A DNA stretch of 64,000 bases from Gammaproteobacteria bacterium (GTDB lineage Bacteria > Pseudomonadota > Gammaproteobacteria > Ga0077536), in contig JAUIFX010000001.1 of assembly GCA_030429865.1 (NCBI GenBank), positions 2,190-66,189 of the forward strand, written 5' to 3'. Every line of letters begins with the position of its first letter. Positions within the stretch are counted from its first letter, which is position 1. This document shows, piece by piece, positions 6,916 through 27,716 of the stretch. The position numbers were made by a program, and so were the translations under genes. A model generated the notes under the pieces. The model had not been told where the DNA came from. It made no database searches and saw only the letters and a list, made by a program, of their open reading frames with translations.

Positions 6916-7785
6916 ATGAACACGGCCCACCCGGCTCCGAGCGAGCTGCCGGCATGGCTCTATTGGCAGGAAGCGGCGCCGATAGACAGCGTCGAAGCGC
7001 CCACGCGCGAAGCCTTCGTCGAGCGCTGGGGCGCGCCCGGCCTGCCGGTCAAGCTCGGCGGCCTGACCGACGCGTGGCCCGCCCGTGAACGCTGGTCGGT
7101 GGCCTTCTTCCGTCGCGAGCACGGCGCCTGTGACGTCACCGTCGAGGCGCGCGCTGCCGCCGGCGGTACGCGCAGTGTACGCCTCGCCGATTACCTGGCG
7201 ACACTCGACGGGCCGACGGGAAACGAGGCCTGGTACCTGAAGGACTGGGTCTTCCGCGAGCAGGCGCCGGCCCTCGCCGACGACTACCGCGTACCCGCCC
7301 AATTCCCGGACTATTTCGCCGAACTCGAGCCGGCGCTGCGCCCCGGTTACAGCTGGATCTACATCGGCCCCCGGGACTCCGCATCCAACTTCCACCGCGA
7401 CGTCGCCGGCACCAGCGCGTGGAACGCGCTGATCCGCGGCCGCAAGCTGTGGCTGTTCTTTGCGCCCGACGAACACGCCGCGGCCTACGACAACTCGCTC
7501 GACGCGTTCGTACGCGACCGCAGCCCGGATCCACGCCTCGCTGCGCGACGACCGCTCTACTGCATCCAGGAACCGGGCGAGATCGTATTCACACCGTCGC
7601 TGTGGTGGCACCAGGTCTACAATCTCGAGACGTCGATCGCCGTGACCGAGAACTTTGCCGACGACTGCAATCTCAAGCACGTGCTGCGCGGCTTGCGCGA
7701 GCGTCCCGAGGGCCGCCATACGGCACTTGCGCTGGCGCTGCTGGTCGGCTGCCGCCGCCCGCGCCCGATTGGAGCGCGGCAGTGA
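6916..7785 (+). CDS. JmjC/cupin-4-like hydroxylase-fold protein
   Basis: 289 aa with ...SWIYIGPRDSASNFHRDVAGTSAWNALIRGRKLWLFF...FTPSLWWHQVYNLETSIAVTENF, characteristic of the JmjC/cupin fold. Confidence 0.6.
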   Translation: MNTAHPAPSELPAWLYWQEAAPIDSVEAPTREAFVERWGAPGLPVKLGGLTDAWPARERWSVAFFRREHGACDVTVEARAAAGGTRSVRLADYLATLDGPTGNEAWYLKDWVFREQAPALADDYRVPAQFPDYFAELEPALRPGYSWIYIGPRDSASNFHRDVAGTSAWNALIRGRKLWLFFAPDEHAAAYDNSLDAFVRDRSPDPRLAARRPLYCIQEPGEIVFTPSLWWHQVYNLETSIAVTENFADDCNLKHVLRGLRERPEGRHTALALALLVGCRRPRPIGARQ

Positions 7786-8268: not shown

Positions 8269-9633
8269 ATGAGCGAGCGCCTGCGCCTGATTCCCAGTGC
8301 CGATGTCGCCACCCTGGGCGCACATTGCTACCTTTTCGATCGCGCCGCGCTGCACGAAAACGTGGTGTCGGTGCCGACCCAGCGCGTTTCGCAGCGCATG
8401 CGCGAGGTCGTGCGGCGCATCCGCGCCGCGTGGCCCGACCATGCGCCACACCCGTACGGCGCCTTCGAGGCCCTGTTCGACAGCGCGGCGGAACGCAACG
8501 TGCTGGCGCAGCTGGCGCGTGCCGGTTACCTCGAGGCGGTGCCGCCGGTGGCGCCGGCACCCGGCGGCACGGCGGCGCGGAGCGGACACGCGGAGACCGG
8601 CGAGGCCACCGATCCGGCGGCGCACTTCCGCGAACGTGTCCTGCGCCACTTCTTCAAGCGCCCCGCGTTCTTCCACCTGCCGGAACAGATCGATGACGAC
8701 GACTGTGACGTTGCGCTCGTCGGCGTGCCGATTTCCTCGACGCTGGTCTCGAGCGGCACCGTCGACGCGCCCGCACGCCTGCGCCGCGACAGCCAGCGCG
8801 CCGGCTTCTGGTTCGACTTCCATGCCGACGGCGTCTATACCGAGACCGGCTGCGACGACAGTCCGCCGCGCCTGATCTGCGCGGGGGTGCGCGCGAAGGA
8901 CTTTGGCGACATCGGCAGCGACTGCCGCACCGTCGGCGAACTGTTCGCCCACGCGCGGCAGCTCGTCGACACGCGGCTCGTCCCGCATGGCATCCGCCCG
9001 TTGTTCATCGGGGGCGATCACGCGGTGACGTTCCCGCTCGTCGATGCCTACCTCCATCACCACCCGGGACTCGTCCTGATCCATCTCGATGCGCACAACG
9101 ACCTCTTCTACACCGAGCGGGTCGAGTTCAACCATGCCGGCCCGGTGCACGGTTTGCTCGTCCACTCCGGGCTCGACAAAGTGCTCTCACTCGGACTGCG
9201 CACCATCGGGGATCCCCGCGTCGGCCCCTACAAGCGCCTGGCCGCGAGCGGTGCGCTGCGCGAACGCGCGCACCTCTACTCGCTGCGGGCACTGGAACGC
9301 TGGCTCGACCGGCCAAGCGAGTTCCAGGCCCACCTGCGCGAATGCATCGGCGTTGACCGGCCGTGTTACCTCACCATCGATCTCGACGTACTGTCGGCCG
9401 ACTGCATCGCCGGACAGCTGTCGACCCCGGCAGGTCCCGGGCTCGGCTGGCACCAGCTGCTCGAGATGGTCCGCCTGGTGACGGAGACCTTCGACGTCGT
9501 TGCCTGCGACGTCGTCGAATTCAACCCGGATCACAAGGATCGCCCGGTCGACGATGCGCGCGAGATGACCGTCCTGCTGCTCGAGCTGATCGACGGACTC
9601 GCGCGCTGCGCGCGGCGCATCGTGCCGCCCTGA
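8269..9633 (+). CDS. Arginase/agmatinase/formiminoglutamase (ureohydrolase) family protein with ~150-aa N-terminal extension; candidate peptide arginase
   Basis: Ureohydrolase metal-binding motifs GGDHAVTFPLV, HLDAHNDL, TIDLDVLSADCIAG. Sits directly upstream of the NHLP precursor. Peptide-arginase role is inferred from context (OspR-type enzymes). Confidence 0.8.
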   Translation: MSERLRLIPSADVATLGAHCYLFDRAALHENVVSVPTQRVSQRMREVVRRIRAAWPDHAPHPYGAFEALFDSAAERNVLAQLARAGYLEAVPPVAPAPGGTAARSGHAETGEATDPAAHFRERVLRHFFKRPAFFHLPEQIDDDDCDVALVGVPISSTLVSSGTVDAPARLRRDSQRAGFWFDFHADGVYTETGCDDSPPRLICAGVRAKDFGDIGSDCRTVGELFAHARQLVDTRLVPHGIRPLFIGGDHAVTFPLVDAYLHHHPGLVLIHLDAHNDLFYTERVEFNHAGPVHGLLVHSGLDKVLSLGLRTIGDPRVGPYKRLAASGALRERAHLYSLRALERWLDRPSEFQAHLRECIGVDRPCYLTIDLDVLSADCIAGQLSTPAGPGLGWHQLLEMVRLVTETFDVVACDVVEFNPDHKDRPVDDAREMTVLLLELIDGLARCARRIVPP

Positions 9634-9963: not shown

Positions 9964-10338
9964 ATGGCTCAATCACTCCAGCAAGTAGCCGAGCGCATTC
10001 ACAAGGTGAAAGAGGAAGTGGCCGTCCAGGCAGTCCAGGACGACGACTTCCGCGAAGCCCTGATGAGCAACCCGACTGCCGCCCTGTGCGAAGAGTACGG
10101 CCTCGAGCCGAGCTTCTTCGAGAACATCTCGGTGCGCGTCGAGGTCGAGAACCCGAACGAAGTGGTCATCGTGATCCCGGCCGAGGCGGCCGAGGAAGAA
10201 CTCAGCGACGAGCAGCTCGAGGCAGTCGCCGGAGGCGCCGCCTTCATCGCCGGTGTTGCGGCCGGTGCCGCGGTCATCAGCGCTGCCGCCGCTGCGGGGA
10301 CCATCGTGCAGAACACCCGCGCGGGACGCCGCTGGTAA
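9964..10338 (+). CDS. NHLP (nitrile hydratase leader peptide) family RiPP precursor
   Basis: 124 aa. Leader ...NPTAALCEEYGLEPSFFENISVRVEVENPNEVVIVIPAEAAEEELSDEQLEAVAGG matches the NHLP consensus, including the LSDEELEAVAGG double-Gly cleavage motif. Core AAFIAGVAAGAAVISAAAAAGTIVQNTRAGRRW. Strong SD (GAGGGAG) 7 nt upstream. Confidence 0.85.
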   Translation: MAQSLQQVAERIHKVKEEVAVQAVQDDDFREALMSNPTAALCEEYGLEPSFFENISVRVEVENPNEVVIVIPAEAAEEELSDEQLEAVAGGAAFIAGVAAGAAVISAAAAAGTIVQNTRAGRRW

Positions 10339-10493: not shown

Positions 10494-10688
10494 ATGAGCC
10501 TGCGACCCCATAAACGCAACCGGATCCTGGCGCTTGCCTTCCTCGCGCTCGGCCTCACGTTCGCGGCGCTTGCCCTGGCCGGAGGCGAAGCACGACTGAC
10601 CCTGGGTCTGGCGGCGCTGACCAACCTGCTCGCGGCATTCGTGTTCTACCAGCAGCAGCGCGGCCGGGACGACTCGGGGGCCGACTAG
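10494..10688 (+). CDS. Small membrane protein (64 aa, two predicted TM helices)
   Basis: MSLRPHKRNRILALAFLALGLTFAALALAGG...LAALTNLLAAFVFYQQQRGRDDSGAD. Hydrophobic; immunity or accessory role is speculative. Confidence 0.35.
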   Translation: MSLRPHKRNRILALAFLALGLTFAALALAGGEARLTLGLAALTNLLAAFVFYQQQRGRDDSGAD

Positions 10689-10983: not shown

Positions 10984-12162
10984 ATGAGCGGCTTGGACTC
11001 CGGGCGCCGGACTGCCGTCGACGCGCGCAGTCCGCACGACTTCAGCGTGGCCGACTACCTGCGCCCCCTCGCACGCGACCTGCCGCCAGCGCTGGTCGCG
11101 GCCGCGGCGCGCGATGCGATCATCGACCTCGCCGCGCAGCTGCCGGGCGCGATCACGAGCTTCTGCGGCTTCGAATGTCCACTCGGCAGCGTCGAGGCCC
11201 GCGCCGACTTCCTGCTCTGCAGCACGCGCGAAGAAGGCCATGCCAGCGTGCTCGCGGGTACGCACGGCGAGAGCGCACTCGCGCCCGCGCTGCGCGCGCT
11301 GCCGGCCTGGCAGCGCGTCGCGGAATTCTCCCGCGCATGGCTCGGCGGGGATGGCCTGCTTGCCGACCACCTCATGAACACCTGGCTCGAGTTCGACATC
11401 GGCCGCGACGCCGAGGCGCTCGCCGCGCCGAGCATGTTCTTCGGCACCCACCCTCCGCCGCCCGGCGCCGCTTCGCGCGCCCAGCTCGATGTCCTGCTCG
11501 CGGCACTGGCCGTGCTCGATCCGCCGGCCGTGCTGGGTCACCGTCGGCGCGCACTGGAAGCCCTGCTGGGAGCACTGCCGCCGGGCTGTCACGTGTTCCA
11601 GGTCGGTGCGATGTGGTCACGCGGTCAAGCGGCGGTACGGCTGTGCCTGCGCGGCGTCGAGCGTTCGGCCGTACCGTCCCTGCTCGGCGCGCTCGACTGG
11701 CCGGGATGCCGTGAAGACGTCGCCGTCCTGCTCGACACCGTGGGCGCACACGCGAGCCGCGTCGACGTCGATCTCGATCTCGGTGACCAGGTCGGTCCCA
11801 AGCTCGGCCTCGAGTGTTACTTCGGTACGGATGCCGGCAACGCCGCACGCCTCGCCGCGCTGACCGCGGCGCTCGTGCGCCACGGCGCGTGCACGCCGGC
11901 CGAGGCCGCGGCGCTCGATGCCTACCAGGGACTGACCCTGCAGGATGCCGCCCCGGCCGACTGGCCGCCTCATCTCGCCGCGCTCGCGCGTGCCGGCGGC
12001 CGCGGGCTGAGCAGCGCGCTGTGCCGCTGGGTGCACCACGTCAAGCTCGTGCACGAACCCGGCGCGGCACTGAGCGCGAAAGCCTACCTCGCCGTCGAGC
12101 ATCACCTGCTGGACCGGCGCCAGCTGCGCGCGCACATCGACGCCATGCGCAGCGGCGCCTGA
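10984..12162 (+). CDS. Hypothetical protein (392 aa), first gene of the translationally coupled modification operon
   Basis: Internal ATG (MSGLDSGRRTAV...) chosen because the upstream part of the track ORF (from 10783) is R-rich. No family recognised. Stop lies 6 nt before the halogenase start. Confidence 0.5.
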   Translation: MSGLDSGRRTAVDARSPHDFSVADYLRPLARDLPPALVAAAARDAIIDLAAQLPGAITSFCGFECPLGSVEARADFLLCSTREEGHASVLAGTHGESALAPALRALPAWQRVAEFSRAWLGGDGLLADHLMNTWLEFDIGRDAEALAAPSMFFGTHPPPPGAASRAQLDVLLAALAVLDPPAVLGHRRRALEALLGALPPGCHVFQVGAMWSRGQAAVRLCLRGVERSAVPSLLGALDWPGCREDVAVLLDTVGAHASRVDVDLDLGDQVGPKLGLECYFGTDAGNAARLAALTAALVRHGACTPAEAAALDAYQGLTLQDAAPADWPPHLAALARAGGRGLSSALCRWVHHVKLVHEPGAALSAKAYLAVEHHLLDRRQLRAHIDAMRSGA

Positions 12163-12168
12163 TCCCCG

Positions 12169-14727
12169 ATGCACGGCCCTTCCCCCGAGTACGACCTGGT
12201 CGTCGCCGGCGGCGGCCCCGCCGGCACCACGCTCGCCACGCTGGTCGCACGTGGCGGCCATCGTGTCCTGCTGCTCGAAGCAAACCGCTTTCCCCGCTAC
12301 CAGATCGGCGAGTCCCTGCTGCCGGCGACCTTCAACGGCCTGTTCCCGCTGCTCGGTATCGACGCCGACCCCGGCCGGCTGGGCGCACCGGTGCTCAAGC
12401 GGGGAGCGACGTTTCACTGGGGGCGCGACGACGACCTGTGGACGATGAACTTCGGCGGCGCGCCGGACGACACCGAACCCGCGCCCGACTGGCCGACGGC
12501 GTTCAACGTGCGCCGCGAGGTCTTCGACGACGTGCTGCTGGGCGCCGCCCGCGCGGCCGGTGTCGAGGTCCGCGAGGGCGCCCGCGTCACCGCTATCGAC
12601 GCCGACGGGGAACGCGTGCGCGGCGTCGAGGTGGGCAGCGACGACGGCACCCGCTGGCACGCGCGCGGCCGCTTCGTCGCCGGCGCAACCGGCCAGGGCT
12701 GTCCACTCGCGGCGCACGTCGGCACGCGCCAACCCTCGGTGTTCTTCCGCAACGCCTCGGTCTTCGGCTACTTCCATGGCGGCGCACGCCTGCCGGGCGC
12801 GCTCGCCGGCAACGTGCTGCTGGAAGCCTTCGACCAAGGCTGGGCGTGGTACATCCCGCTCAACGACGAACTGACGAGCGTCGGCGTGGTGCTGCATCAC
12901 CCGCACACGCAGCGTCTCGGCGGCGACCGCGAGGCCGCGTTCCGCGACAGCCTCGCGCGCTGCACCTACATCGACGGCTACCTGCGCGGAGCGCGTCGTG
13001 CCACCACGCCGCCCTACGCCGGGCTGCGCGTGCGTTCGGAGTTCTCCTACACGCACGCGCGCTTCTGGCGCGCAGGTGCGCTGCTGGTCGGCGACAGCGC
13101 CTGCTTCGTCGACGTGATTCTCTCCTCGGGCGTACACCTGGCGACGTTCGGTGCACTGCAGGCGGCGCGCGCTCTCAACGCCGTGCTCGACGGCGAATTG
13201 CCCGAGCGCCTCGCGCTCAACGAGTTCGAGCTGCGCTACCGTCTCGAGTTCACCCGCTTCTACCAGGGGCTGCTCGGCCTGCACGACATGGCCCACGATG
13301 GCGCCACCTACCGCGAATGGCTGCGCGGGATGCTGCGGCGTACCCAGGGCGTCTACCTCGACGACGCGGCGGCGCCGCCGGCGCAGCGCCGCCGCACCTG
13401 GCAGGCGCTGGCATGGCTGCGCAAGCAGAACGCGCAGCTGGTGGCGTCGACCGCGCCGCCCGCAATGGATGCCGCGGCCGCGCTGCCCGCGATCGCCGGT
13501 GAGCTGCTCGTGCATGCCGATGGACTGCGCTTCGCGCGCGCCGCCGAACAGACCGATGCCGGCGACGCGCCCGATCCGCGGGTCGACACGCCGCTCTACG
13601 ATTACGGCAAGCTGCACGCCAGCGCCGCTCCCTACCTGCAGGCCTGTCCCGACGGCGTCGACGGTGCGCTCGCGCTGGTCACGGCCGCGCGCAGCCGTGG
13701 CATCCACCTGCGCGTACGCGGCAGCGGGCACACCTTCAGCGGCGCGAGCCTGCCGCGCGAAGGCGAGGTGCTGGTGCGTACCAACGGCCTCGATCACTAT
13801 CACTTCCACGCGCCTGGCCGGCTCGTCGCCGGCGCCGGCGCCATGGTCTGGGACATCCGCGATCTCGCCCGCGACCACGGCTTCGACCTGCCCGTCTATA
13901 ACGGCGGTTGGGCCGGACCGACCCTCGGTGGCTACATCTGCGCCGGCGGGTTCGGCAAGAGCGGCCTGTCGGAGGATGCCGGCGGGCTGTGGGAGAACAT
14001 CTATGCCGTGCGTCTCGTCGACGGGCATGGGACGCTGCGCACGATCACGCGCGACGACGACGCCTTCCCGTGGCTGTTCGGCAGCTCCGGCCAGCTCGGC
14101 CTGCTGGTCGATGCCGAGCTGCGCCTGGTGCCGTACGCCGATGCCACGGGCGCGCCGCGCTACCCGGTCGATGAACGTGGCCGCGTACCGCGCCGCCAGG
14201 TCGATGACCCGCGCCTCAACGACGTCGCGCCACGGCCCGACGACGACAAGCGGCTGTTCTGGTTCACCTTGCTGGTGTCACCGGCGGAGGAAGCCGACGC
14301 CTGGGCCGGCCTCGAGCAGCTCGTCCTCGATCACCGCGACGTGCTCGTGCCGGATGGCGGCTGGGCCGGCCCGCAACTCGACGGTGCGCCGATCGGCTAC
14401 CGCTACGTGATCCGTTTCCACGAGTTCAACCCGCCGCTGGTCTACCCGCGCGCCGAGACGTTCCTGTGCATCGGCGTGATGAGCCTGCTCGCCAGTGGCG
14501 ATGCCGGGAGCGATGCGCGGCTGCGTGCGATCGAGCGCGATTTCGTCGCACTCGCGCGGACGCGCCGGCTGCGCCTGTACCTGCAGGCGGAAAACATCAC
14601 CGGGCAGGTAGACCAGCGCCGTTATTACGGGCGTGCGACCTGGGAACGCTTTCTCGAACTCAAACGCGACTTCGACCCCGCGGCGCTGTTCAATCGCGAC
14701 GTCGTCTTCCCTCCCGATGCGCTATGA
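12169..14727 (+). CDS. Fusion protein: flavin-dependent (tryptophan-type) halogenase N-terminal domain plus FAD-linked oxidase (PCMH-type FAD-binding) C-terminal domain
   Basis: N-terminus DLVVAGGGPAGTTLA (GxGxxG), GESLLP, and the halogenase signature WxWxIP (FDQGWAWYIPL). C-terminal half has RVRGSGHTFSGASL FAD-binding motif and oxidase-like body. Single uninterrupted 852-aa ORF. Confidence 0.8.
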   Translation: MHGPSPEYDLVVAGGGPAGTTLATLVARGGHRVLLLEANRFPRYQIGESLLPATFNGLFPLLGIDADPGRLGAPVLKRGATFHWGRDDDLWTMNFGGAPDDTEPAPDWPTAFNVRREVFDDVLLGAARAAGVEVREGARVTAIDADGERVRGVEVGSDDGTRWHARGRFVAGATGQGCPLAAHVGTRQPSVFFRNASVFGYFHGGARLPGALAGNVLLEAFDQGWAWYIPLNDELTSVGVVLHHPHTQRLGGDREAAFRDSLARCTYIDGYLRGARRATTPPYAGLRVRSEFSYTHARFWRAGALLVGDSACFVDVILSSGVHLATFGALQAARALNAVLDGELPERLALNEFELRYRLEFTRFYQGLLGLHDMAHDGATYREWLRGMLRRTQGVYLDDAAAPPAQRRRTWQALAWLRKQNAQLVASTAPPAMDAAAALPAIAGELLVHADGLRFARAAEQTDAGDAPDPRVDTPLYDYGKLHASAAPYLQACPDGVDGALALVTAARSRGIHLRVRGSGHTFSGASLPREGEVLVRTNGLDHYHFHAPGRLVAGAGAMVWDIRDLARDHGFDLPVYNGGWAGPTLGGYICAGGFGKSGLSEDAGGLWENIYAVRLVDGHGTLRTITRDDDAFPWLFGSSGQLGLLVDAELRLVPYADATGAPRYPVDERGRVPRRQVDDPRLNDVAPRPDDDKRLFWFTLLVSPAEEADAWAGLEQLVLDHRDVLVPDGGWAGPQLDGAPIGYRYVIRFHEFNPPLVYPRAETFLCIGVMSLLASGDAGSDARLRAIERDFVALARTRRLRLYLQAENITGQVDQRRYYGRATWERFLELKRDFDPAALFNRDVVFPPDAL

Positions 14728-16195
14728 CCCGAACCTGCCGCGGGCCGTGTTTCTGGGCCCCTCTTTCGCGCCCGCCGCGGCGGCCAGGCTGCTGCCCGCG
14801 AACTACTATCCACCGGTGCGCATGGGTGACGTCTATCGCCTGCTCGCCAGCGGCGTCGAGACCATCGTCATCATCGACGGCGTGTTCCACCAGAGCACGC
14901 CGGTATGGCAGCGCGAGATCCTCGCCGCGCTGGAAGCCGGTATCCGCGTCGTCGGCGGTGCCAGCATGGGCGCGCTGCGCGCCGCCGAACTCGCGCCCTA
15001 CGGCATGGAAGGCATCGGTACGATCTACGGCTGGTACCGCGATGGCGTGATCGATGGCGACGACGAGGTCGCGCTGGTCCACGCCGACGCCGAGCTCGAG
15101 TACCAGGCGCTGTCGGAGCCGCTCGTCAACATGCGCTACAATCTGGCGCGCGCGCGCGCGAACGCCGTCATCGACGCCGCCGCGCACGACGCGTTGTTGG
15201 CCGCGGCGCAACAGCGCTGCTTCACCGAGCGCAGCTGGCGCCGCCTCGAAGCGGCGCCCGCCTGGCAGGCTCTGGCGCCTGCGCGCCGCGCGGCGCTTGC
15301 CGCCTTCCTTGCGAACGATTATGTCGATCTCAAGCACGCCGACGCGCGAGCCGTGCTCGAACACGTGCGCCGCAGCACCGCAGACAGCCGTTCCGCGCTA
15401 CGCCCGCGCAGCCGGTGGTCGTATCCCGGCAGCGCCCGCGTACGTCTGCAGGCCGCGCTGGCGCCGGACGGCAGCCTGGTCGACGGCGCCACCGTGCTCA
15501 CCAGGGCACTCGCGGCCGACGACGCCTGGGTCGCTCCCTGTCTGCGCGAGGCGCACGCGCGCTGCTACCTCGAGGACTGGCTCGAGCGCTGCGCCGCGAT
15601 GCCGCCGGCGGAGACGCTGGCGCCGTTCCTGGCCAGGGTGACGCCTGCGCAGGCAAGCGGTGACGCAGCCGCGTTCGCGCGCGCCAACGGCCTGACCCGC
15701 GACGAACTCGACGCCGCGCTCGCGGCGCGTGCACGCCATGCCTGGCTGCTGGCCGGGGAAAGCGCCATGCCCGGGACGGACGACGCCGCGCACGACGCCC
15801 TCCTCGCCGCCCTCGGCGAGACGGCGGCGAGCGCGCGCGCGGCGGCACGCCGCGACGCCTGCCTCGCCGCCTGGGCGCGCCGGCGCGGCATCAGCTGCCC
15901 CGCAGCCGAGCACGACCGGCGCGCGCCGCACTGGTGTGCCGCGCACGGACTGTCCGCGGCGGCAGTCGACGCCGATGCGCGTCTCGCGCGCGCCCTCGCC
16001 GAACGGGTCCTTGCCGCCTGGCTGCTCGACCAGGAACCGGCACACTTCGGTTTCGAACGTTTCTCTGCCGACGCCGAGCTGCTGCTCGCGCTCAAGCTCG
16101 ATGGCCGCCACGCGGCGCTCGTCGCCGACCTGACCGGCGTGCGTGCCGCACCGGCACCACCGCACAAGGACAGCAGCGCCGCGGGGGCCGCATGA
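14717..16195 (+). CDS. tfuA: TfuA-like protein (YcaO partner for thioamidation) with long Ala-rich C-terminal extension
   Basis: N-terminal ~230 aa match the TfuA core (VFLGPSFA...GDVYRLL...IVIIDGVFHQSTPVWQREILAALEAGIRVVGGASMGALRAAEL...GIGTIYGWYRDGVIDGDDEVALVH). Overlaps the halogenase stop by 11 nt and the ycaO start by 4 nt (ATGA). Confidence 0.75.
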   Translation: MRYDPNLPRAVFLGPSFAPAAAARLLPANYYPPVRMGDVYRLLASGVETIVIIDGVFHQSTPVWQREILAALEAGIRVVGGASMGALRAAELAPYGMEGIGTIYGWYRDGVIDGDDEVALVHADAELEYQALSEPLVNMRYNLARARANAVIDAAAHDALLAAAQQRCFTERSWRRLEAAPAWQALAPARRAALAAFLANDYVDLKHADARAVLEHVRRSTADSRSALRPRSRWSYPGSARVRLQAALAPDGSLVDGATVLTRALAADDAWVAPCLREAHARCYLEDWLERCAAMPPAETLAPFLARVTPAQASGDAAAFARANGLTRDELDAALAARARHAWLLAGESAMPGTDDAAHDALLAALGETAASARAAARRDACLAAWARRRGISCPAAEHDRRAPHWCAAHGLSAAAVDADARLARALAERVLAAWLLDQEPAHFGFERFSADAELLLALKLDGRHAALVADLTGVRAAPAPPHKDSSAAGAA

Positions 16196-17358
16196 ACCAC
16201 GCCTTCGCCTACACGCGCGGCACCTACCGTATTGCGACCCCGCAGGCCACGCTGGCGCGCATCGCGCCGCTGCTGCCGGCATGCGGCATCACGCGCGTCA
16301 CCGCGGTCACCCACCTCGATCGCCTCGGCGTGCCGGTTTACTGCGCGATCCGCCCGAACGGCGTCGTCCTGCAGGTCTCCAACGGCAAGGGTCTGAGCGC
16401 CGACTGCGCGCGCGTCTCGGCGCTGATGGAAGCGATCGAGCTGCACCACGCCGAGAACCCGCCGCCAGGCGCGCTGCGCGAAGCCACCCAGGCCGAACTC
16501 GAAGCCGCCGGCGAACGCGTGCTCGCGCCGCCGGCCCTGCCCGGCTACAACGGGGCCTACTTCGCGCGGGACTTCCGCCTGGAATGGATCCGAGGAACGG
16601 CGCTGGATGACGGCGCCGCCGCCTGGGCCCCGGCCAGCCTGGCCTGCTTCGCGCGCTCGCCGGCACCGCTCGTCACCGACACCAACGGCCTGGCCTCCGG
16701 CAATCACCTGCTCGAAGCGAGCCTGCACGCGCTCTACGAGCTGCTCGAGCGCGACGCCCTGGCCGGTCTCGGGCAGGATGGCCGGCTCGCCATCCGCGAA
16801 CGCTGCCGCGTCGTCGACACCGCTTCGATCACCGATACCGATCTGCACGCGCTGATCGCCGCCATCGCCGCGCGCGAGAGCCACGTCGTGCTGCTGTGGG
16901 TGCCGAGCCGCGTCCCGGTGCACACGTTCTGGGCGGTACTGCTCAACCGCCGCAGCGGCGCGGCACCGGTATCGACGCTCAACCTGGGCGCCGGCTGCCA
17001 CCACGACCCGAAGGTCGCCGCGGCGCGTGCCGTGACCGAGGCGGCACAGTCGCGCCTGAGCTTCATCCATGGCGCGCGCGAGGATCGCGTTGCCAAGCCC
17101 GTCGACCGCGCGCGCGCGGTTTCGGAAAGCCCCGCCTATCGCTATTTCGATGGCCTCGAGGCCGACACCGCGTGGCACGAGCTGCTGCCTGCCGCGCATT
17201 TGCCCGGCGATCTCGAGCAGGCGCACGACTGGCTGGTCACGGCTTTGTCGGGCACCGGCATCCGCGCGTGGCGCTTCGACCTCACCCGCGCCGAACTCGG
17301 TATCCCGGTAGTCAAAGTCGTCGCGCCCGGCCTCGCCTTCAATGGACGCCTGCTGTGA
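16192..17358 (+). CDS. ycaO: YcaO domain protein (ATP-dependent backbone amide activation; thioamide or azoline forming)
   Basis: MNHAFAYTRGTYR...; YcaO ATP-binding motifs SALMEAIELHHAE and LHALYELLERDAL (ExxERD), GLASGN. Internal ATG coupled to the tfuA stop. Confidence 0.85.
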   Translation: MNHAFAYTRGTYRIATPQATLARIAPLLPACGITRVTAVTHLDRLGVPVYCAIRPNGVVLQVSNGKGLSADCARVSALMEAIELHHAENPPPGALREATQAELEAAGERVLAPPALPGYNGAYFARDFRLEWIRGTALDDGAAAWAPASLACFARSPAPLVTDTNGLASGNHLLEASLHALYELLERDALAGLGQDGRLAIRERCRVVDTASITDTDLHALIAAIAARESHVVLLWVPSRVPVHTFWAVLLNRRSGAAPVSTLNLGAGCHHDPKVAAARAVTEAAQSRLSFIHGAREDRVAKPVDRARAVSESPAYRYFDGLEADTAWHELLPAAHLPGDLEQAHDWLVTALSGTGIRAWRFDLTRAELGIPVVKVVAPGLAFNGRLL

Positions 17359-18133
17359 ACGCGGCGCACGCAAGACCGTCGTGACGGCGACACCCGCGAA
17401 CGCCCTGGTCAGCCGCGCCGCGGTGCTCGACGAGGCTGCCTGCGCGGCCATCGCCCAACGCGTGCACGCCCTGCGCGCGCACTGGGTCGCGCGCGACGCG
17501 GCCGCCTTCCACACGCTCGGCGCCGCGCTCTACCTCGACCGTCCGACGGCCGCGACGCGTGAACGCTTCGGTCTCGCCGATGCCGACCCGGCGCGCTACG
17601 GCACGCTCGCCCGCGCGACGAACACCCTGCTCGAAGCCGGCTTCGCCGAGCTCTACGCCGCCTTCGCCGACGCGCTCGCCGGCCTGCTCGATGCCGACGT
17701 ACGCTACGCGGCCGACCGCGCCCGCCCCGGCTTCCACGTCTTCGAGCACCACCCTTCCTACGCCCGGCAGTCCGCGCACGTGCCCCATTTCGACCGGCAG
17801 TACGAGTGCATCGACTGGCCGCAGGCGGCAACCATCGACTTCACGGCGGCGATCTCGATCACGCTGCCGATCCGTTTGCCGGCGCGTGGTGGCGGGCTGC
17901 GCGTGTGGGAGCTGAACCTGTTCGACGTACAGGCGCTGGGTCCCGCCGCGGCGCGCGAACGCGCGCGCCGGGCGCCCTCGCGCGTACATCGCTACGTGCC
18001 GGGTGAACTGGTCTGCCACCGCGGCCACCTCCTGCACCAGATCCAGCCCTGGCCCTCGCGGCCCGGCGACGAGCGCATCACGCTGCAGGCGCACGGCCTG
18101 TTCTACGACGGTGCCTGGCAACTCTACTGGTAG
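17342..18133 (+). CDS. Putative Fe(II)/2-oxoglutarate-dependent oxygenase-like protein
   Basis: Candidate HxD...H facial triad (HVPHFD ... CHRGHLLH). Overlaps the ycaO stop by 17 nt, so last gene of the coupled operon. Family assignment weak. Confidence 0.4.
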   Translation: MDACCERGARKTVVTATPANALVSRAAVLDEAACAAIAQRVHALRAHWVARDAAAFHTLGAALYLDRPTAATRERFGLADADPARYGTLARATNTLLEAGFAELYAAFADALAGLLDADVRYAADRARPGFHVFEHHPSYARQSAHVPHFDRQYECIDWPQAATIDFTAAISITLPIRLPARGGGLRVWELNLFDVQALGPAAARERARRAPSRVHRYVPGELVCHRGHLLHQIQPWPSRPGDERITLQAHGLFYDGAWQLYW

Positions 18134-18169: not shown

Positions 18170-20185
18170 CTAGCGCAGCCCGGCGAAGAACGCGGGTGGG
18201 GGCACATCGCCGGCCAGCCTCAGCAGAAGCCGCTCGCCCGCCGCGCGCGTATCGAGTTCGAGTTCACCACGGCGCCCGTCGCCGTCGGCACGCACGCGCA
18301 GGCTGACGTGGCGCCCCGCGTCGTGCAGCGCGGTGACCACGGTCCAATCCGCCGGGGCCGGGGGCGGCGGCGCCTCCGGATCGCAGGACTCGCGCACCAG
18401 CGAGAGCGCCGTGATACCTGCGGCGAGACGGTCGAGCAGCGCCTGGTCGGTGCCCGGCAGGGCGACCCGGGTGACCGTCGCCGAGAGGGCCTGGCCGAGT
18501 TCCGGGGCGGTCAGCTCGACGCGCTCGGCGCGTGCGTGGCGCAGCGCGAGCAGGCGCACGAGACCGTTGACGAAAGCCGAGGCGCGCAGCGTCATGGGCA
18601 GCCCCGCATGCCGATCGAGGCTCTCGATGGCCGCGCTCAGCGCGTGCTCGACACTGAGCAGGCGGCGCGCCGTCGGCCCGAAGGCGTGCGCACGAGTCAG
18701 CTCGCGAAAGCGCGCGAGGTCGAAACCAAGCGATGCCAGGGGCGCTGCAGCGTCGTTGAGCCGCGCCAGCGCGGCGCCTTCGCCGAGGGCCCCCGCCGTG
18801 TAGTCATCCATCACGTCGCAGGCCGCGGTCAGCACCGGCAGCACCGTCTCCTCGCCGGCGATGCACGCACCCGCGGCCAGCGCCTCCTGCGCCGCTGCCC
18901 AGGCGCCGGCGTCGTCGCGCTCGAGCGCGGCCAGCGAGGGCACCACCTGGGCCAGGCTGAGCTGCTCGACCAGGCTCCACGCGGCCAGCCACCAGTCGGT
19001 CAGGGCAGCGCTGCGGAAGCCGCCGTAGCTGCCGTGCACGAGGTGGTCGTGGACCTGGACCAGGCTGTGCTGCAGGCGCGCGACCGGCGCGAAGCGCGCG
19101 GTCGAGAAATCGCCGGCAGCCCGCGCCTCGAGCAGGCAGCCGGCGAGCAGGTGCAGACTCTGGAACGTGTTGAGCAGGCCACGCGAGTAGAGCGCATCGA
19201 CGTTGCCGGCCGGCGCGCCGAGCAGGCACACGCGCTCACCGACGACCCCCGCCGGCACGGTTCTGGCCCCGCGACTGCTCATCCACGGCCGCACCGGCGC
19301 GGCCTTGCCGAACTGCGCGGCCAGCGCCGGGTAACGCGCCAGCAGCGCGGACCACTCTTCGCCCGGCGACGCATCCCCCGGCGGGTGCACGCGGTTGTCG
19401 AAATTGACGCCGACGCTGACCAGGCGGTTGCGCGAGCGCGGGTGGTTGCCGAACGGGATCACCCACATCCAGGCGCCGTCGAGGATGTGATGCAGGGTGC
19501 CGTGGTGCCAGGGCAAGGCCGGCGGCGGCGCGGCGGCGCAGTCGTCGAAGGGCCGCACGCCGGTGAGGTGGGTGAAGATCACGCGCGAATCGGTCCGCAG
19601 CGGCGCCGTGCCCAGCGCCGCGACCCGCGGCAGCGTGGCGCCGTGACCGACGCAGTCGACGAGGTAACGGCCGTGCACGCGCCCGGCGCTGGTCGCGAGG
19701 CAGACGCCATCGTCCGCCACCGCTTCCTCGCCGCGGATTTCCGCCGTCAGCAGGGTGCAGCCGGCCTCGACGGCGCGCGCGCACAGCCAGGCATCGATGT
19801 CCTGGCGATACAAGTGCGCCTCGAGCACGTCCTCGGCGTAATTGACGGCGATATTGGCCCACCACTGCGCCTCGGTACGGGCGCTGCCGGCGGCATGGCG
19901 CACGAAGCCGAAGGACTTCTTAACCCCGGAGCTGGGCCCGATCTCGTCGTGGATGCGGTTCAGGTTGGCGATCGCGGCCAGTTCCTCCGCGCCGTAGCGC
20001 TCGGCCAGCACGCGCATCCACAGCACGGTCGGCTTGAGCAGGGATTCGCCGAGCGCGAAGCGCGGGTGCGGCGCCCGCTCGACGATCACGGTCGAGACCC
20101 CCTGGCGCGCAAGCACCAGTCCGAGCGCGCAACCGGTGATGCCGGCACCAAGAATGATGACCTCGCAGGACGCCGCTTCCATCAT
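18170..20185 (-). CDS. Flavin-dependent halogenase (second copy) with ~250-aa C-terminal extension
   Basis: MMEAASCEVIILGAGITGCALG (GxGxxG), GESLLKPT, and WxWxIP signature (GAWMWVIPF). ATG at 20185 chosen over the upstream GTG at 20224. Confidence 0.8.
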   Translation of the reverse strand: MMEAASCEVIILGAGITGCALGLVLARQGVSTVIVERAPHPRFALGESLLKPTVLWMRVLAERYGAEELAAIANLNRIHDEIGPSSGVKKSFGFVRHAAGSARTEAQWWANIAVNYAEDVLEAHLYRQDIDAWLCARAVEAGCTLLTAEIRGEEAVADDGVCLATSAGRVHGRYLVDCVGHGATLPRVAALGTAPLRTDSRVIFTHLTGVRPFDDCAAAPPPALPWHHGTLHHILDGAWMWVIPFGNHPRSRNRLVSVGVNFDNRVHPPGDASPGEEWSALLARYPALAAQFGKAAPVRPWMSSRGARTVPAGVVGERVCLLGAPAGNVDALYSRGLLNTFQSLHLLAGCLLEARAAGDFSTARFAPVARLQHSLVQVHDHLVHGSYGGFRSAALTDWWLAAWSLVEQLSLAQVVPSLAALERDDAGAWAAAQEALAAGACIAGEETVLPVLTAACDVMDDYTAGALGEGAALARLNDAAAPLASLGFDLARFRELTRAHAFGPTARRLLSVEHALSAAIESLDRHAGLPMTLRASAFVNGLVRLLALRHARAERVELTAPELGQALSATVTRVALPGTDQALLDRLAAGITALSLVRESCDPEAPPPPAPADWTVVTALHDAGRHVSLRVRADGDGRRGELELDTRAAGERLLLRLAGDVPPPAFFAGLR

Positions 20186-20416: not shown

Positions 20417-20953
20417 ATGCGCAAGGTATTGTTCATTTTCGGTGAACTCACCGACGCCGACACCGAGTGGATGTGCGATGCCGGCCAGGCCCTCACCCTG
20501 GCGACCGGCGACCGTTTGATCGAGGCCGGCCACCCGGTGCACGAGCTCTCGCTGGTACTGCGCGGTGAACTCGGCGTGTACGCCGGCGAGCGCGAAATCG
20601 CGCTGCTCGGCGAAGGCGAGATCGTCGGCGAGCTGTCGTTTCTCGATGCGCGCCCGCCTTATGCGTCGGTCGTTGCCACCGAACCCTCGATCGTTTTGCG
20701 CGTACCGCACGAAGCGGTGCACGCGCGTTTCGCCCGCGACCCCGGCTTCGCCGGCCGTTTCTATCGAAGTCTCGGCATTTTCATGGCCAGCCGCTTGCGC
20801 CAGACGGTCGGGCAGCTCGGCGTGCTCGGCGATGACGACGAACTCGCCGAGGACGCGACCAGCGTCGACGAAATCGACCCCGACGTGCTCGATCGCTCGG
20901 CCATCGCCGGGCGCCGCTTCGAGCGTCTGCGCACCCGCCTCGGAGTCGAATGA
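20417..20953 (+). CDS. Cyclic nucleotide-binding domain protein (bacteriocin-export-associated type)
   Basis: cNMP-binding beta-roll motif GEIVGELSFLD...PYASVVATEP. SD GGGGAG 7 nt upstream. ATGA overlap with the downstream HlyD gene. Confidence 0.7.
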   Translation: MRKVLFIFGELTDADTEWMCDAGQALTLATGDRLIEAGHPVHELSLVLRGELGVYAGEREIALLGEGEIVGELSFLDARPPYASVVATEPSIVLRVPHEAVHARFARDPGFAGRFYRSLGIFMASRLRQTVGQLGVLGDDDELAEDATSVDEIDPDVLDRSAIAGRRFERLRTRLGVE

Positions 20954-22392
20954 GCGTGGCCGACGACAAAGACATCTTCCGTAAGGAAGCCCTCGACCAG
21001 CTGAGCTCGCCCGAACAGCTCGAGCAACTGCTCGAGGTGACCACCCGCAAGGCCTGGGTCAGCCTCTACACCATTGCCGGTGCGCTCGTCGCGATTCTCC
21101 TGTGGAGCGTGTTCGGCCAGATTCCGATCACGGTCGACGGCTCCGGCATCTTCGTCTACCCGAGACGGGTCGTGTCGTTCCAGTCGCCGGCGCCGGGACA
21201 GGTCGTGAGCATCGACGTCAACGTCGGTGATTTCGTCGACAAGGGCGACATCATCGGCACCCTCAACCAGCCCGACCTCGCGCAGGAACTCGAACAGGAA
21301 CGCGTGCGCCTGGCCGAAGCACGCGCCCAGGTACTGCTCAAGGGCGATGCCCTCGAACAGCGCCTGGCGCTCGAACGCGAATCGATCGTGCGCAAGCGCG
21401 AGCTGCTCGCGCAGCGCATCGAGTCGCTGCAGCGGATCTCCGAGGCGCAGAAGAAGCGCAATGCGGGCTACCTCGCGCAGCAGAGCAAGAACCTCGCCGA
21501 GGCGCGCAGCACCCAGCAGAAGCTCGGCCGCGCGCTGGAGGAACGTTTCGAGAGCTACGAGCGCCTGCGCGCCGAAGGGCTCTCCTCCGACGACAGCGTG
21601 CTCGCCGCACGCCAGCGCTACATGGACAACCAGGTGCAGCGCTCCGAGCTCGACCTGCGCGCCCAGGAACTCGAACTGCGCCGACTGGAGAACGAGCAGG
21701 CCTACCAGCAATCGCTAGACCGCATCGAGGAGTTCCGCACCCAGCTGCAGGATCTCGAGATCCGCGAGCGCGAGCTGGACCAGCAGGCGCTGGAGACCAG
21801 CGCCAGCGCGAAGCAGCGTATCCAGGAGATCGAACGCAACATCGCGCGCCTCGAAAGCCAGCTCGCGACGCGCAGCCAGATCGTCAGCGAACATGCCGGC
21901 CGCATCCTCGAGATCACGACCGGTCCCGGCCAGATCGTCAATGCCGGCCAGCGCATCGGCTCGATCGAGACCGAGGATGCCGCGGGTGAGCTGATGGGCG
22001 TGGCCTTCTTCGCCGTCGGCGACGGCAAGAAACTGGCCGCCGACGGCGTGCTGCGCCTCACCCCGACGACGGTGGAACGCGAACGCTACGGCAGCATCGT
22101 CGCCACCATCACGAGCGTCTCGGCCTTCCCGGTCACGGCGGATGCCATCAGCTCGATGATCGGCAACGCCGAGGTCGCCCAGGAAATCAGCCAGGGCCGC
22201 AGCGTCATCCAGGTCGTCGCCCGCCTGCACGAGGACGCGGACGCCCATACCGGCTACGAATGGACCTCCGGCAAGGGTCCGCCCGGACCGCTCACCGCCG
22301 GCACCACGGCCAGCGCGCGCGCGACGGTCGAATACCGCCGCCCGATCACGTTCGTCATCCCGATCCTGCGCAGGTGGACCGGCGTTGGCTGA
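20950..22392 (+). CDS. HlyD-family secretion (membrane fusion) protein, NHLM-bacteriocin-system type
   Basis: N-terminal TM (VSLYTIAGALVAILLWSVF), long coiled-coil (LAQELEQERVRLAEARAQ...), C-terminal beta domain. Coupled to flanking genes. Confidence 0.8.
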   Translation: MSVADDKDIFRKEALDQLSSPEQLEQLLEVTTRKAWVSLYTIAGALVAILLWSVFGQIPITVDGSGIFVYPRRVVSFQSPAPGQVVSIDVNVGDFVDKGDIIGTLNQPDLAQELEQERVRLAEARAQVLLKGDALEQRLALERESIVRKRELLAQRIESLQRISEAQKKRNAGYLAQQSKNLAEARSTQQKLGRALEERFESYERLRAEGLSSDDSVLAARQRYMDNQVQRSELDLRAQELELRRLENEQAYQQSLDRIEEFRTQLQDLEIRERELDQQALETSASAKQRIQEIERNIARLESQLATRSQIVSEHAGRILEITTGPGQIVNAGQRIGSIETEDAAGELMGVAFFAVGDGKKLAADGVLRLTPTTVERERYGSIVATITSVSAFPVTADAISSMIGNAEVAQEISQGRSVIQVVARLHEDADAHTGYEWTSGKGPPGPLTAGTTASARATVEYRRPITFVIPILRRWTGVG

Positions 22393-27551: not shown

Positions 27552-27716
27552 GTGATGACGTCGCCGGCCGGCCCCACCGGCCGCGCATTGCACCACGGGC
27601 TGCCGCCCACCGCCTGTCCCCGGATCCTCGATAATCAGTATCGATATACTAAAATTAGATAGTTATATCGCTTTTCTCGTGTAAACTCTTACCTGATTCA
27701 GGCACGACGACATCCC

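Follow-up and report, generated by a model that had tools for sequence, protein, structure and literature searches.

A single open reading frame in the 64,000-nt window, the whole stretch of DNA analysed here, was originally predicted to encode a flavin-dependent halogenase (Hal) joined to an FAD-linked oxidase (Ox), which raises two questions: is such a fusion genuine, and what would its two domains act upon? The frame (12169..14727; like all features below on the + strand unless stated otherwise) starts with ATG and runs over 852 codons to its stop without an internal one, and a domain search returned Pfam matches above the curated cut-offs for both halves, PF04820 for the halogenase domain (residues 1-440, 12169..13488) and FAD_binding_4 for a C-terminal VAO/PCMH-fold flavoprotein domain (residues 476-852, 13594..14724). 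Between them lie the C-terminal tail of the halogenase and the inter-domain linker (residues ~441-475, 13489..13593), variable over residues ~458-474.

The single polypeptide predicted is thus what the sequence encodes, and several lines of evidence bear on whether it could stem from a frameshift or an assembly error. GC3 lies between 0.82 and 0.92 in a single frame over the whole ORF, junction included, and codon bias is uniform across the Hal/Ox junction. Fused proteins at least 90% identical to it occur in several independent assemblies, and 12 other protein clusters, at 68-81% identity, have the same domain order, which brings the Hal-Ox fusion to 13 clusters with that of the window protein; the nearest relative with a species genome, at 81% identity, is from a Gammaproteobacteria MAG. 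Linker length differs, always in frame, among 13 fused homologues, and the reverse fusion, Ox-Hal, is found in nine further clusters. As independent assemblies and 22 fused clusters agree with linkers that vary in length but stay in frame and with a uniform GC3, we regard the fusion as genuine and the artefact explanation as refuted, with practically no probability left to it.

A structure prediction of the whole fusion could be computed with AF2, and it yielded a pTM of 0.56 with neither confident domain packing nor confident inter-domain geometry; the halogenase half, represented by 13 sequences only, and the linker, which has low pLDDT, are poorly resolved in it. No description of a halogenase/VAO pair or fusion was found in the literature searched, in agreement with the original prediction, which knew of no such fusion in characterised enzymes.

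Family assignment of the two domains

In the Pfam search, the halogenase domain matches Trp_halogenase (PF04820) with an E-value of 7.5e-35 (121.1 bits, cut-off 21). The motifs from which a halogenase had been predicted are all present, GxGxxG at residues 14-19 (G14GGPAG19), GESLLP at 47-52 (G47ESLLP52) and WxWxIP at 225-230 (W225AWYIP230), and are accompanied by K77 and by GDSACFVD...SSGVHL at residues 308-324. Within a set of 31 homologues, G14, G15, G16, P17 and G19, the GESLLP motif with K77, and W225, W227, I229 and P230 are invariant. CndH (PDB 3e1t) is matched at an E-value of 1e-103, with 46% identity over 376 residues, and in this alignment K77 pairs with CndH K76, at the position of the catalytic lysine (K79 in PrnA). 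The best NCBIfam family is CmlS (4.8e-59), with secondary matches to QhpG (5.9e-39), LodB (4e-17) and GoxB (3e-11), and the PDB matches at E<=1e-5 are CndH, 8zop, CmlS, ChlB4, RadH, PltA, CtcP and PltM, with no PrnA, RebH or MibH chain among them. Judged by its sequence, the N-terminal domain is a CndH/CmlS-type (variant B) flavin-dependent halogenase. An assignment to the tryptophan halogenases proper (PrnA/RebH/MibH/SrpI) was rejected, as the PDB matches are of the CndH/CmlS type and the Trp-binding module is missing; of the predicted "tryptophan/pyrrole-type" enzyme, therefore, the variant B, phenol/pyrrole part stands and the likeness to tryptophan halogenases does not. CndH and CmlS share with the window domain GxGxxG, GESLLP, the catalytic lysine and WxWxIP, and likewise have no C-terminal Trp-binding module, but they are stand-alone enzymes of NRPS/PKS-type pathways that take carrier-bound or small phenolic substrates, whereas the window domain shares its chain with a VAO-type flavoprotein and is encoded in a RiPP operon with a core peptide that contains no tyrosine.

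The oxidase domain is matched by FAD_binding_4 (PF01565) over residues 493-626 (E-value 1.4e-13, 51 bits, cut-off 26.4), and this above-threshold match together with a two-domain VAO fold identifies it as a VAO/PCMH flavoprotein. The predicted RGSGHTFSG motif is indeed there, within L514RVRGSGHTFSG525, and corresponds to the histidine motif of covalent FAD attachment: in alignments, H521 falls on the GH of 9p1o and of CKX chains, and it is conserved, at the 8-alpha-flavinylation position (GxGH[ST]), in 102 of 103 homologues. From these alignments, His521 is probably the site of a covalent 8-alpha-histidyl-FAD. The closest folds are those of DprE1, alditol oxidase (AldO), L-galactonolactone dehydrogenase (GalDH) and cytokinin dehydrogenase (CKX), and BBE-like chains rank lower than all four. 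The berberine-bridge/cytokinin-oxidase-like body of the original prediction could not be upheld: the berberine-bridge assignment was rejected on this ranking and on the lack of a BBE domain in the Pfam output for the fusion protein, and the cytokinin-oxidase assignment because Cytokin-bind (PF09265) gives only a faint match below threshold (15.4 bits against a cut-off of 23, residues 758-841) and the cytokinin dehydrogenase fold matches are 18-20% identical to the domain. DprE1, alditol oxidase, L-galactonolactone dehydrogenase, cytokinin dehydrogenase, Clz9/Tcz9 and EncM share only 16-21% identity with Ox, which differs from these VAO/PCMH relatives in that it makes up a separate family of at least 120 clusters, whose proteins are ~385-450 aa long, and is linked to peptide precursors.

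Trp-terminal precursors and arrangements of the pair

About 2 kb upstream of the fusion, the window encodes a 124-aa NHLP-type precursor (9964..10338; TIGR03793, 59.4 bits, cut-off 50.9), whose leader ends in ...LSDEQLEAVAGG and whose core, AAFIAGVAAGAAVISAAAAAGTIVQNTRAGRRW, has tryptophan as its terminal residue. LSDEQL precedes the Gly-Gly site AVAGG in the leader, and the only aromatic residues of the core are one phenylalanine and the terminal tryptophan. The TIGR03793 leader, the AVAGG site and an exporter combining a C39 peptidase (PF03412) with an ABC transporter place the cluster among the NHLP/proteusin systems. At ~20 Hal/Ox loci we found ~40 double-glycine precursors of the NHLP or Nif11 type within 10 kb, all with a Gly/Ala/Val-rich core and all ending in tryptophan (RRW, RSW, GSGW, GGGW, GDGGW, GRGGW, GRVW and similar), under a search filter that did not require a terminal W. 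This tryptophan is the sole invariant core residue among them.

The question posed with the original prediction, whether orthologues are fused or split, has both answers: Hal-Ox and Ox-Hal fusions occur alongside split neighbouring pairs in either order, Hal>Ox and Ox>Hal, examples of adjacent split pairs being those of loci L009 (with a 4-nt overlap) and L011, of Hormoscilla and of Ruegeria. In neighbour-joining trees the Hal and Ox topologies agree, and each fused clade nests beside split pairs of identical gene order. Since the two trees agree, a co-evolving pair of genes became fused on at least two occasions. Ox is also encoded without Hal at three loci (L017, L029 and L032) where W-terminal precursors are still present, so that the tryptophan goes with Ox too, and not with Hal alone. 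Around more distant Ox homologues (at most 39% identity, ~30 loci), neither a halogenase nor a W-terminal precursor was detected alongside. In Ruegeria, the precursors, Ox and Hal are the only cluster-type genes within 10 kb. Overall, Hal/Ox RiPP loci are distributed over Gamma- and Alphaproteobacteria, cyanobacterial sponge symbionts, Acidobacteriota and marine metagenomes.

Possible roles of the fusion

The precursors beside Hal and Ox, whether these are fused or adjacent, invariably have tryptophan as their last residue, which suggests that it is tailored in two steps in a way not yet described, and on balance we lean towards reading the fusion as a bifunctional two-flavin RiPP enzyme that would both halogenate and oxidise the C-terminal Trp of the precursor. 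The coupled halogenation and oxidation on the peptide put forward in the original prediction thereby gains support from comparative genomics, by way of the invariant C-terminal Trp in neighbouring precursors; our inferences are that both domains share Trp as their substrate, and with it the order of steps, the halide and the product of oxidation. In such an enzyme, FADH2 and O2 would give a flavin hydroperoxide in the halogenase domain, which would oxidise the halide, with Lys77 directing the resulting hypohalous species to the substrate, and the C-terminal domain would work as an oxidase or dehydrogenase with an FAD probably bound covalently through His521. The NHLP precursor encoded upstream would serve both domains: the indole ring of its terminal tryptophan would be halogenated, and the same residue dehydrogenated or oxidised, for instance at C-beta or C-alpha, by an indole-assisted hydride transfer to FAD. 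TfuA/YcaO thioamidation, conversion of Arg to Orn, cleavage after the Gly-Gly site and export through the C39 ABC transporter would precede or follow.

A precedent for tryptophan as the target is SrpI, a brominase that targets the C-terminal Trp of NHLP precursors and reads an LxxxxL motif in their leader (PMC10858898). The leader in the window has such a motif in LSDEQL. SrpI (and also the RiPP halogenases MibH, MppI and ChlH) thus shares with the window the NHLP precursor, the LxxxxL motif, the Gly-Gly site and the presumed C-terminal Trp target; it was discovered by searching with MibH and consists of one domain (PMC12615548), whereas the window domain is part of a fusion and has no MibH-type chain among its PDB matches (E<=1e-5). 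No oxidase partner is mentioned in the SrpI literature searched. Several observations count against the tryptophan reading: the known substrates of CndH-type halogenases are phenols and pyrroles, not indoles; the second halogenase-like protein, the JmjC oxygenase or the two uncharacterised proteins of the cluster could modify the tryptophan; the distant Ox homologues come without Hal and without a detected W-terminal precursor; the full-length AF2 model has no confident inter-domain geometry; and no flavin reductase was seen among the cluster ORFs tested.

Both domains could instead be active at different sites or in unrelated steps, the fusion reflecting the assembly of a multi-enzyme complex or co-regulation, with Ox acting, for example, on the backbone, on Gly/Ser or on the product of the 392-aa protein encoded upstream, and Hal on Trp. 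Such a division would suit an oxidase that is linked more often to the 392-aa protein than to Hal, is even fused to it in locus L043 and occurs without Hal, and would sit well with a model that predicts no defined interface; we nonetheless judge it unlikely, given the independent fusions in both orders, the agreeing domain trees, the Ruegeria clusters that hold little beyond Hal, Ox and precursors, and the terminal Trp as the only invariant core residue. That the N-terminal domain should in practice be a tryptophan hydroxylase is suggested by its secondary matches, as QhpG, LodB and GoxB all modify peptide- or protein-bound Trp, but CmlS and CndH score far better and the halogenase-specific lysine and WxWxIP are invariant, which renders this explanation improbable. 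The C-terminal domain, for its part, might lack catalytic activity and serve only to dock the large NHLP/Nif11 leader. Variant-B halogenases such as CndH have an open cleft and normally need a carrier protein to present the substrate, and no RRE domain was detected here. The retention of the FAD-binding motif, the flavinylation histidine and ~25 invariant residues across at least 100 Ox homologues nevertheless makes a dead module very hard to credit.

An equally slim chance is given to a VAO domain that serves the halogenase, either by passing on reducing equivalents from substrate dehydrogenation or as a stand-in flavin reductase. The lack of a flavin reductase among the ORFs tested would then be accounted for, a two-electron oxidation would balance the two-electron reduction of the flavin, and reductase-halogenase single polypeptides do exist in Bmp5 and AetF (PMC12615548). 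Like these and JasF, the window protein unites halogenation and another flavin-related function on a single chain, but theirs is NAD(P)H-dependent flavin reduction (PMC12615548). The second domain of the window protein has the fold of a substrate oxidase of the VAO type, without an NAD(P)H site, and is not a fused reductase. VAO-fold enzymes hold their FAD tightly, here probably by a covalent bond, and covalent flavins have high redox potentials; moreover, Ox accompanies W-terminal precursors at the three loci that have no halogenase.

Returning to the joint tailoring of the terminal tryptophan, a broader and more tentative reading, which we put forward as a possibility, is that Hal and Ox, often with the ~390-aa protein, constitute an obligate Trp-tailoring module of a widespread, uncharacterised RiPP class, marked by an NHLP/Nif11 leader, a Gly/Ala/Val-rich core and the invariant C-terminal Trp. 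Its product may be a halogenated and oxidised Trp-derived C-terminus, such as a halo-dehydro- or beta-oxo-tryptophan, or a cyclised or prenylated derivative, and in the boldest version the two flavins may be redox-coupled, with substrate dehydrogenation powering halogenation. Only a handful of RiPP-acting halogenases are known, and peptide halogenases are sought for late-stage functionalisation (PMC12615548). Here, a CndH-type lineage has apparently been recruited to ribosomal peptides together with an obligate-looking flavin oxidase partner, for which two independent gene fusions are unusually strong genomic evidence of a functional link, and the invariant C-terminal Trp offers a clear, testable substrate hypothesis. 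Should oxidation make a new Trp-derived warhead, the VAO superfamily would gain a new reaction and the RiPPs a new class. Experiments are feasible, as there are cultured strains with the split pair (Ruegeria sp. EL01 and Ruegeria haliotis B1Z28) and with Ox alone (Catenovulum sediminis D2).

Neighbouring genes in the cluster

With TfuA, YcaO, an arginase-family protein, an NHLP leader and a C39 exporter, the window resembles TfuA/YcaO and landornamide-type arginase RiPPs, but the literature searched yielded no described TfuA/YcaO or proteusin RiPP in which a halogenase/VAO pair and an invariant terminal Trp are added to these, and a search for the combination halogenase/TfuA/arginase/NHLP gave only SrpI-type work and reviews. 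Polytheonamide-type proteusins differ in their radical-SAM epimerases and C-methyltransferases, with no Radical_SAM match among the ORFs tested in the window between 6.9 and 30 kb, where small ORFs were scanned non-exhaustively.

At the left edge of the cluster lies a Cupin_8/JmjC-type oxygenase (6916..7785; PF13621 3e-20, PF02373 1e-14), a gene that is also found in L004 and adjoins Ox in L017. It is followed by the arginase-family protein (8269..9633; PF00491 5e-33), which has an N-terminal extension of ~145 aa, adjoins the cluster in L003, L004 and L013 as well, and probably works as a peptide arginase on the RR that precedes the terminal Trp; L009 has an FlmR_OhkR_N protein. Between the precursor and the 392-aa protein is a conserved, small hydrophobic ORF of 64 aa (10494..10688), possibly an immunity or membrane protein. 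The conserved, uncharacterised 392-aa protein itself (10984..12162, ATG at 10984) is encoded directly upstream of the fusion and is the third recurring partner of the Ox family, its homologues adjoining Ox in ~30 loci; 14 members of the family gave no Pfam or NCBIfam match, and a profile search of the PDB was empty. An ABBA prenyltransferase barrel had been suggested by strand-like motifs in five pairs and by an IPP isomerase within the Catenovulum cluster, an identity that remains speculation because hhalign against NphB gave no support (probability 0.2).

Downstream, the ATG of a TfuA-like protein (14717..16195; PF07812 2.4e-45, NF033432 8e-65) overlaps the 3' end of the fusion by 11 nt, and is followed by its thioamidation-type YcaO partner (16192..17358; PF02624 1.9e-65, TIGR03266 9e-51) and by a conserved, uncharacterised 263-aa protein (17342..18133), in which an HVPHFD...H motif is visible by eye, with no family match in profile searches and with homologues in L001, L004 and L009. 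The second, separate halogenase of the original prediction, ~671 aa long and on the - strand (18170..20185), holds up as an FAD protein with GESLL, the aligned lysine and WMWVIP; having lost the GD of GDAAxFxD and scoring weakly against families (the best, QhpG at 1.3e-11, is below its cut-off), it is halogenase-like only and not a proven halogenase. A cNMP-binding protein (20417..20953; PF00027 2.5e-14), in the same position in L001 and L004, leads into the block of export genes (20950..30053), which comprises an HlyD-like adaptor (20950-22392), the C39-peptidase ABC transporter (22385-24637), a second ABC transporter (24630-27551) and an outer-membrane efflux protein (27717-30053).

Domain architecture of the fusion

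The interval 12169-14727 (+) contains one open reading frame with an ATG start, 852 codons and no internal stops, whose third-position GC content stays at 0.82-0.92 in one frame over its entire length, including the domain junction. Its N-terminal half matches the Trp_halogenase family (Pfam: PF04820; E 7.5e-35, bit score 121, cut-off 21) and residues 493-626 match FAD_binding_4 (Pfam: PF01565; E 1.4e-13, bit score 51, cut-off 26.4), with a further Cytokin-bind match below threshold at residues 758-841. The single-polypeptide halogenase/oxidase fusion of the original prediction is thus confirmed, as are all the motifs it quoted (G14GGPAG19, G47ESLLP52, W225AWYIP230 and L514RVRGSGHTFSG525); we find that reading essentially right, with two refinements, to the type of halogenase and to the subfamily of the oxidase.

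The closest solved relative of the halogenase (Hal) domain is CndH (PDB: 3e1t; E 1e-103, 46% identity over 376 columns), followed by 8zop, CmlS, ChlB4, RadH and PltA, and its top NCBIfam family is CmlS (4.8e-59). As no PrnA, RebH or MibH chain is among its PDB matches at E≤1e-5, the domain is, judged by its sequence relatives, a variant-B, CndH-type halogenase; its assignment as a flavin-dependent halogenase stands, while that to the classical tryptophan halogenases does not. Variant-B halogenases have an open cleft and act on substrates presented by a carrier. Lys77 aligns with CndH Lys76, and G14, G15, G16, P17, G19, GESLLP, K77, W225, W227, I229 and P230 are invariant in 31 homologues.

Searched with residues 441-852, the oxidase (Ox) domain retrieves at least 120 clusters of stand-alone, 380-450-residue "FAD-binding oxidoreductases" that are 37-60% identical to it, none of which carries a functional name. 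An AlphaFold2 model from an alignment of 103 stand-alone homologues (pLDDT 92, pTM 0.91) finds cytokinin oxidases as top Foldseek matches (E about 4e-18, TM 0.66, 18% identity), and the best PDB sequence match is 9p1o (E 1.3e-11), an entry from the Clz9/Tcz9 work. In RGSGH, the GH pair aligns to the GGHS/GHS flavinylation motif, whose histidine is kept in 102 of the 103 homologues and in every fused protein. Pfam tests for BBE and CKX membership were both negative, which rules out either assignment. The predicted RGSGHTFSG FAD-binding motif and PF01565 domain therefore hold, and in place of the berberine-bridge/cytokinin-oxidase-like body the domain represents a new subfamily within the VAO superfamily, distinct from BBE and CKX.

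Fused and split forms

In 5.8 billion proteins clustered at 90% identity, we found an identical protein, 12 more clusters of the same Hal-Ox architecture (68-81% identical, 842-859 residues) and nine clusters of 912-932 residues, about 44% identical, all nine of which have the reverse, Ox-Hal order by BLAST of the separate halves. The window protein's own cluster has members from several independent assemblies (Logan, ENA, JGI), and the junction (about residues 458-474) varies in sequence and length and is in frame in 13 of 13 Hal-Ox proteins. Together with the 13 Hal-Ox and nine Ox-Hal clusters and the uniform third-position GC, this refutes an artefactual fusion.

A survey of one genome per species gave 52 loci encoding an Ox-domain relative, and their arrangement was established by stop-to-stop analysis. 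Both fused and split orthologues exist: Hal-Ox is fused in three loci and Ox-Hal in four, while adjacent split genes run Hal>Ox in two (Hormoscilla) and Ox>Hal in six, three of them Ruegeria. The remainder have no halogenase nearby, and their oxidases are mostly at ≤39% identity. Split pairs are exemplified by L009, where a 483-residue halogenase gene overlaps by 4 nt the gene of a 397-residue oxidase that follows it, and by L011, where a 443-residue oxidase comes before a 475-residue halogenase. In neighbour-joining trees, computed without bootstrap, the Hal and Ox domains are mutually congruent and each fused clade adjoins split pairs of matching gene order. Most simply, two neighbouring genes co-evolved and became fused on at least two occasions, and the two fusion orders, the split pairs and the agreeing trees argue for functional coupling.

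Published reviews and original studies of RiPP halogenases cover MibH, SrpI, MppI and ChlH, and discuss only reductase-type halogenase fusions, Bmp5, AetF and JasF (PMC12615548), in contrast to the VAO-type oxidase found here. In line with the prediction that the fusion is absent from characterised enzymes, our literature search, which left subscription journals mostly uncovered and whose negative outcome is not proof, returned no description of a halogenase/VAO-oxidase pair, fusion or such a cluster type. These clusters are apparently an uncharacterised, widely distributed RiPP family.

Gene neighbourhood and precursor peptides

The fusion belongs to an operon whose genes are closely spaced or overlap and which comprises, in order, a Cupin_8/JmjC protein (6916-7785, +), an arginase-family protein with a ~145-residue N-terminal extension (8269-9633, +), an NHLP precursor (9964-10338; TIGR03793 above cut-off), a 64-residue ORF with two hydrophobic stretches (10494-10688, +), an unknown ~392-residue protein (10984-12162, +), Hal-Ox, TfuA (14717-16195), YcaO (16192-17358), an unknown 263-residue protein without family hit (17342-18133, +), a divergent halogenase-like flavoprotein (18170-20185, -), a cNMP-binding protein and, finally, export genes for an HlyD-like adaptor, a C39-peptidase ABC transporter, a second ABC transporter and an outer-membrane factor. 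This order is repeated in L001-L004 and L012-L014.

The leader of the window precursor ends in EELSDEQLEAVAGG and is followed by the core AAFIAGVAAGAAVISAAAAAGTIVQNTRAGRRW. At each locus we looked for small ORFs whose leader ends in a double glycine and whose core is rich in Gly/Ala/Val/Ile/Leu/Ser/Thr, leaving the last residue free, and every genuine candidate beside Hal/Ox ends in Trp (about 40 NHLP- or Nif11-type peptides from 20 or so loci, with endings including RRW, RSW, RQGW, GSGW, SGGW, GGGW, GDGGW, GRGGW, GRVW, GSAW and SNPW). Trp-terminal precursors also accompany Ox without Hal in L017 (Catenovulum), L029 and L032. In three Ruegeria loci, two of them from cultured strains (L025, Ruegeria sp. 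EL01; L028, uncultured Ruegeria; L030, R. haliotis B1Z28), the sole cluster-type genes within 10 kb are two or three Trp-terminal Nif11 precursors (...TSGSGW), Ox (about 450 residues) and Hal (about 485 residues), with no TfuA, YcaO or ~390-residue partner in that range; this minimal version, present in two cultured marine Alphaproteobacteria, offers a convenient experimental entry to the system. Since the candidates beside Hal/Ox, like those at the three Hal-less loci and at the minimal ones, end in Trp, the terminal Trp, the only invariant core residue, appears to be the one feature that travels with the enzymes.

The halogenase-free cluster of Catenovulum sediminis D2 (L017) also encodes an M23 peptidase and a JmjC protein besides TfuA and YcaO, and an isopentenyl-diphosphate isomerase gene (11150-11716, -; NF002995, 162 bits against a cut-off of 127) sits between Ox and a pair of Nif11 precursors with GSGW termini, which could point to an isoprenoid step or be a coincidence.

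Proposed chemistry and accompanying proteins

Two evolutionarily coupled flavoenzyme domains with intact catalytic signatures thus occur, at the level of sequence, in RiPP clusters with an invariant C-terminal Trp, which adds to the evidence of coupling a concrete substrate hypothesis. The Hal domain would halogenate the indole of this Trp, a flavin hydroperoxide oxidising the halide and Lys77 handing it on. This would parallel SrpI, an enzyme that recognises an LxxxxL motif in the leader of NHLP peptides and attaches bromine to their C-terminal Trp (PMC10858898); the leader of the window precursor contains LSDEQL. The Ox domain, with FAD probably linked to His521, would take a hydride from the same Trp. 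The enzymes nearest to it in fold oxidise C-OH or C-N bonds, and VAO itself oxidises benzylic carbons via a quinone-methide intermediate; by this analogy we favour, as a guess, Cβ/Cα dehydrogenation or Cβ oxygenation through an alkylidene-indolenine-type intermediate. By analogy with known families, the pathway would further include thioamidation by TfuA/YcaO, conversion of the two arginines of RR to ornithine, removal of the leader at GG, and export.

Alternatively, Hal and Ox may act at different sites inside one complex, in favour of which the Ox family is linked more often to the 392-residue protein than to Hal. This ~390-residue family is the commonest neighbour of Ox (~30 loci), has six paralogues in L032 and is fused to Ox in a 740-residue ORF of a Chlamydiia MAG (L043, 8786-11017). 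It has no match in Pfam, NCBIfam or PDB sequences; its ten strand-like conserved motifs form five pairs (FGFE/DFLxC, WLEFD/LFFG, VFQxG/RLCxxG, DxDxD/LGLExY and HHxKxV/AKAYL), and an hhalign comparison to NphB, for an ABBA prenyltransferase barrel, was not significant. That Ox supplies electrons to Hal is unlikely, given that it also exists in the absence of Hal, lacks an NAD(P)H site and probably binds its flavin covalently. The invariant Lys and WxWxIP speak against Hal being a QhpG/LodB-like Trp hydroxylase, and the conserved FAD site against Ox being a dead docking module.

The predicted second halogenase (18170-20185, -) is a separate gene that retains GESLL, WMWVIP and the Lys at the aligned position (VKKSFGF), but has lost the GD of GDAAxFxD; it carries a ~250-residue C-terminal extension, matches QhpG best, under cut-off, and is conserved in L001, L004 and L009. 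The arginase-family gene adjoins a precursor with RR ahead of the terminal Trp, and the related locus L009 encodes an FlmR_OhkR_N-domain protein, which suggests a candidate peptide arginase converting Arg to ornithine. The 64-residue ORF is conserved at its place after the precursor, with a 62-residue homologue in L001, and may serve in immunity or as a membrane component. The 263-residue protein, confined to NHLP-type clusters (window, L001, L004 and L009), has an HVPHFD...HRGHLLH pattern resembling a His/Asp metal site and ends in ...AWQLYW. Cupin_8/JmjC-type oxygenases also lie at the cluster edge in L004 (5308-6159) and L017 (9134-9946, directly upstream of Ox). The MAG records of L013 and L014, which carry a cluster of ~70% GC, are titled "Klebsiella pneumoniae" and "uncultured Klebsiella sp.", which looks like a taxonomic mislabel of bins.
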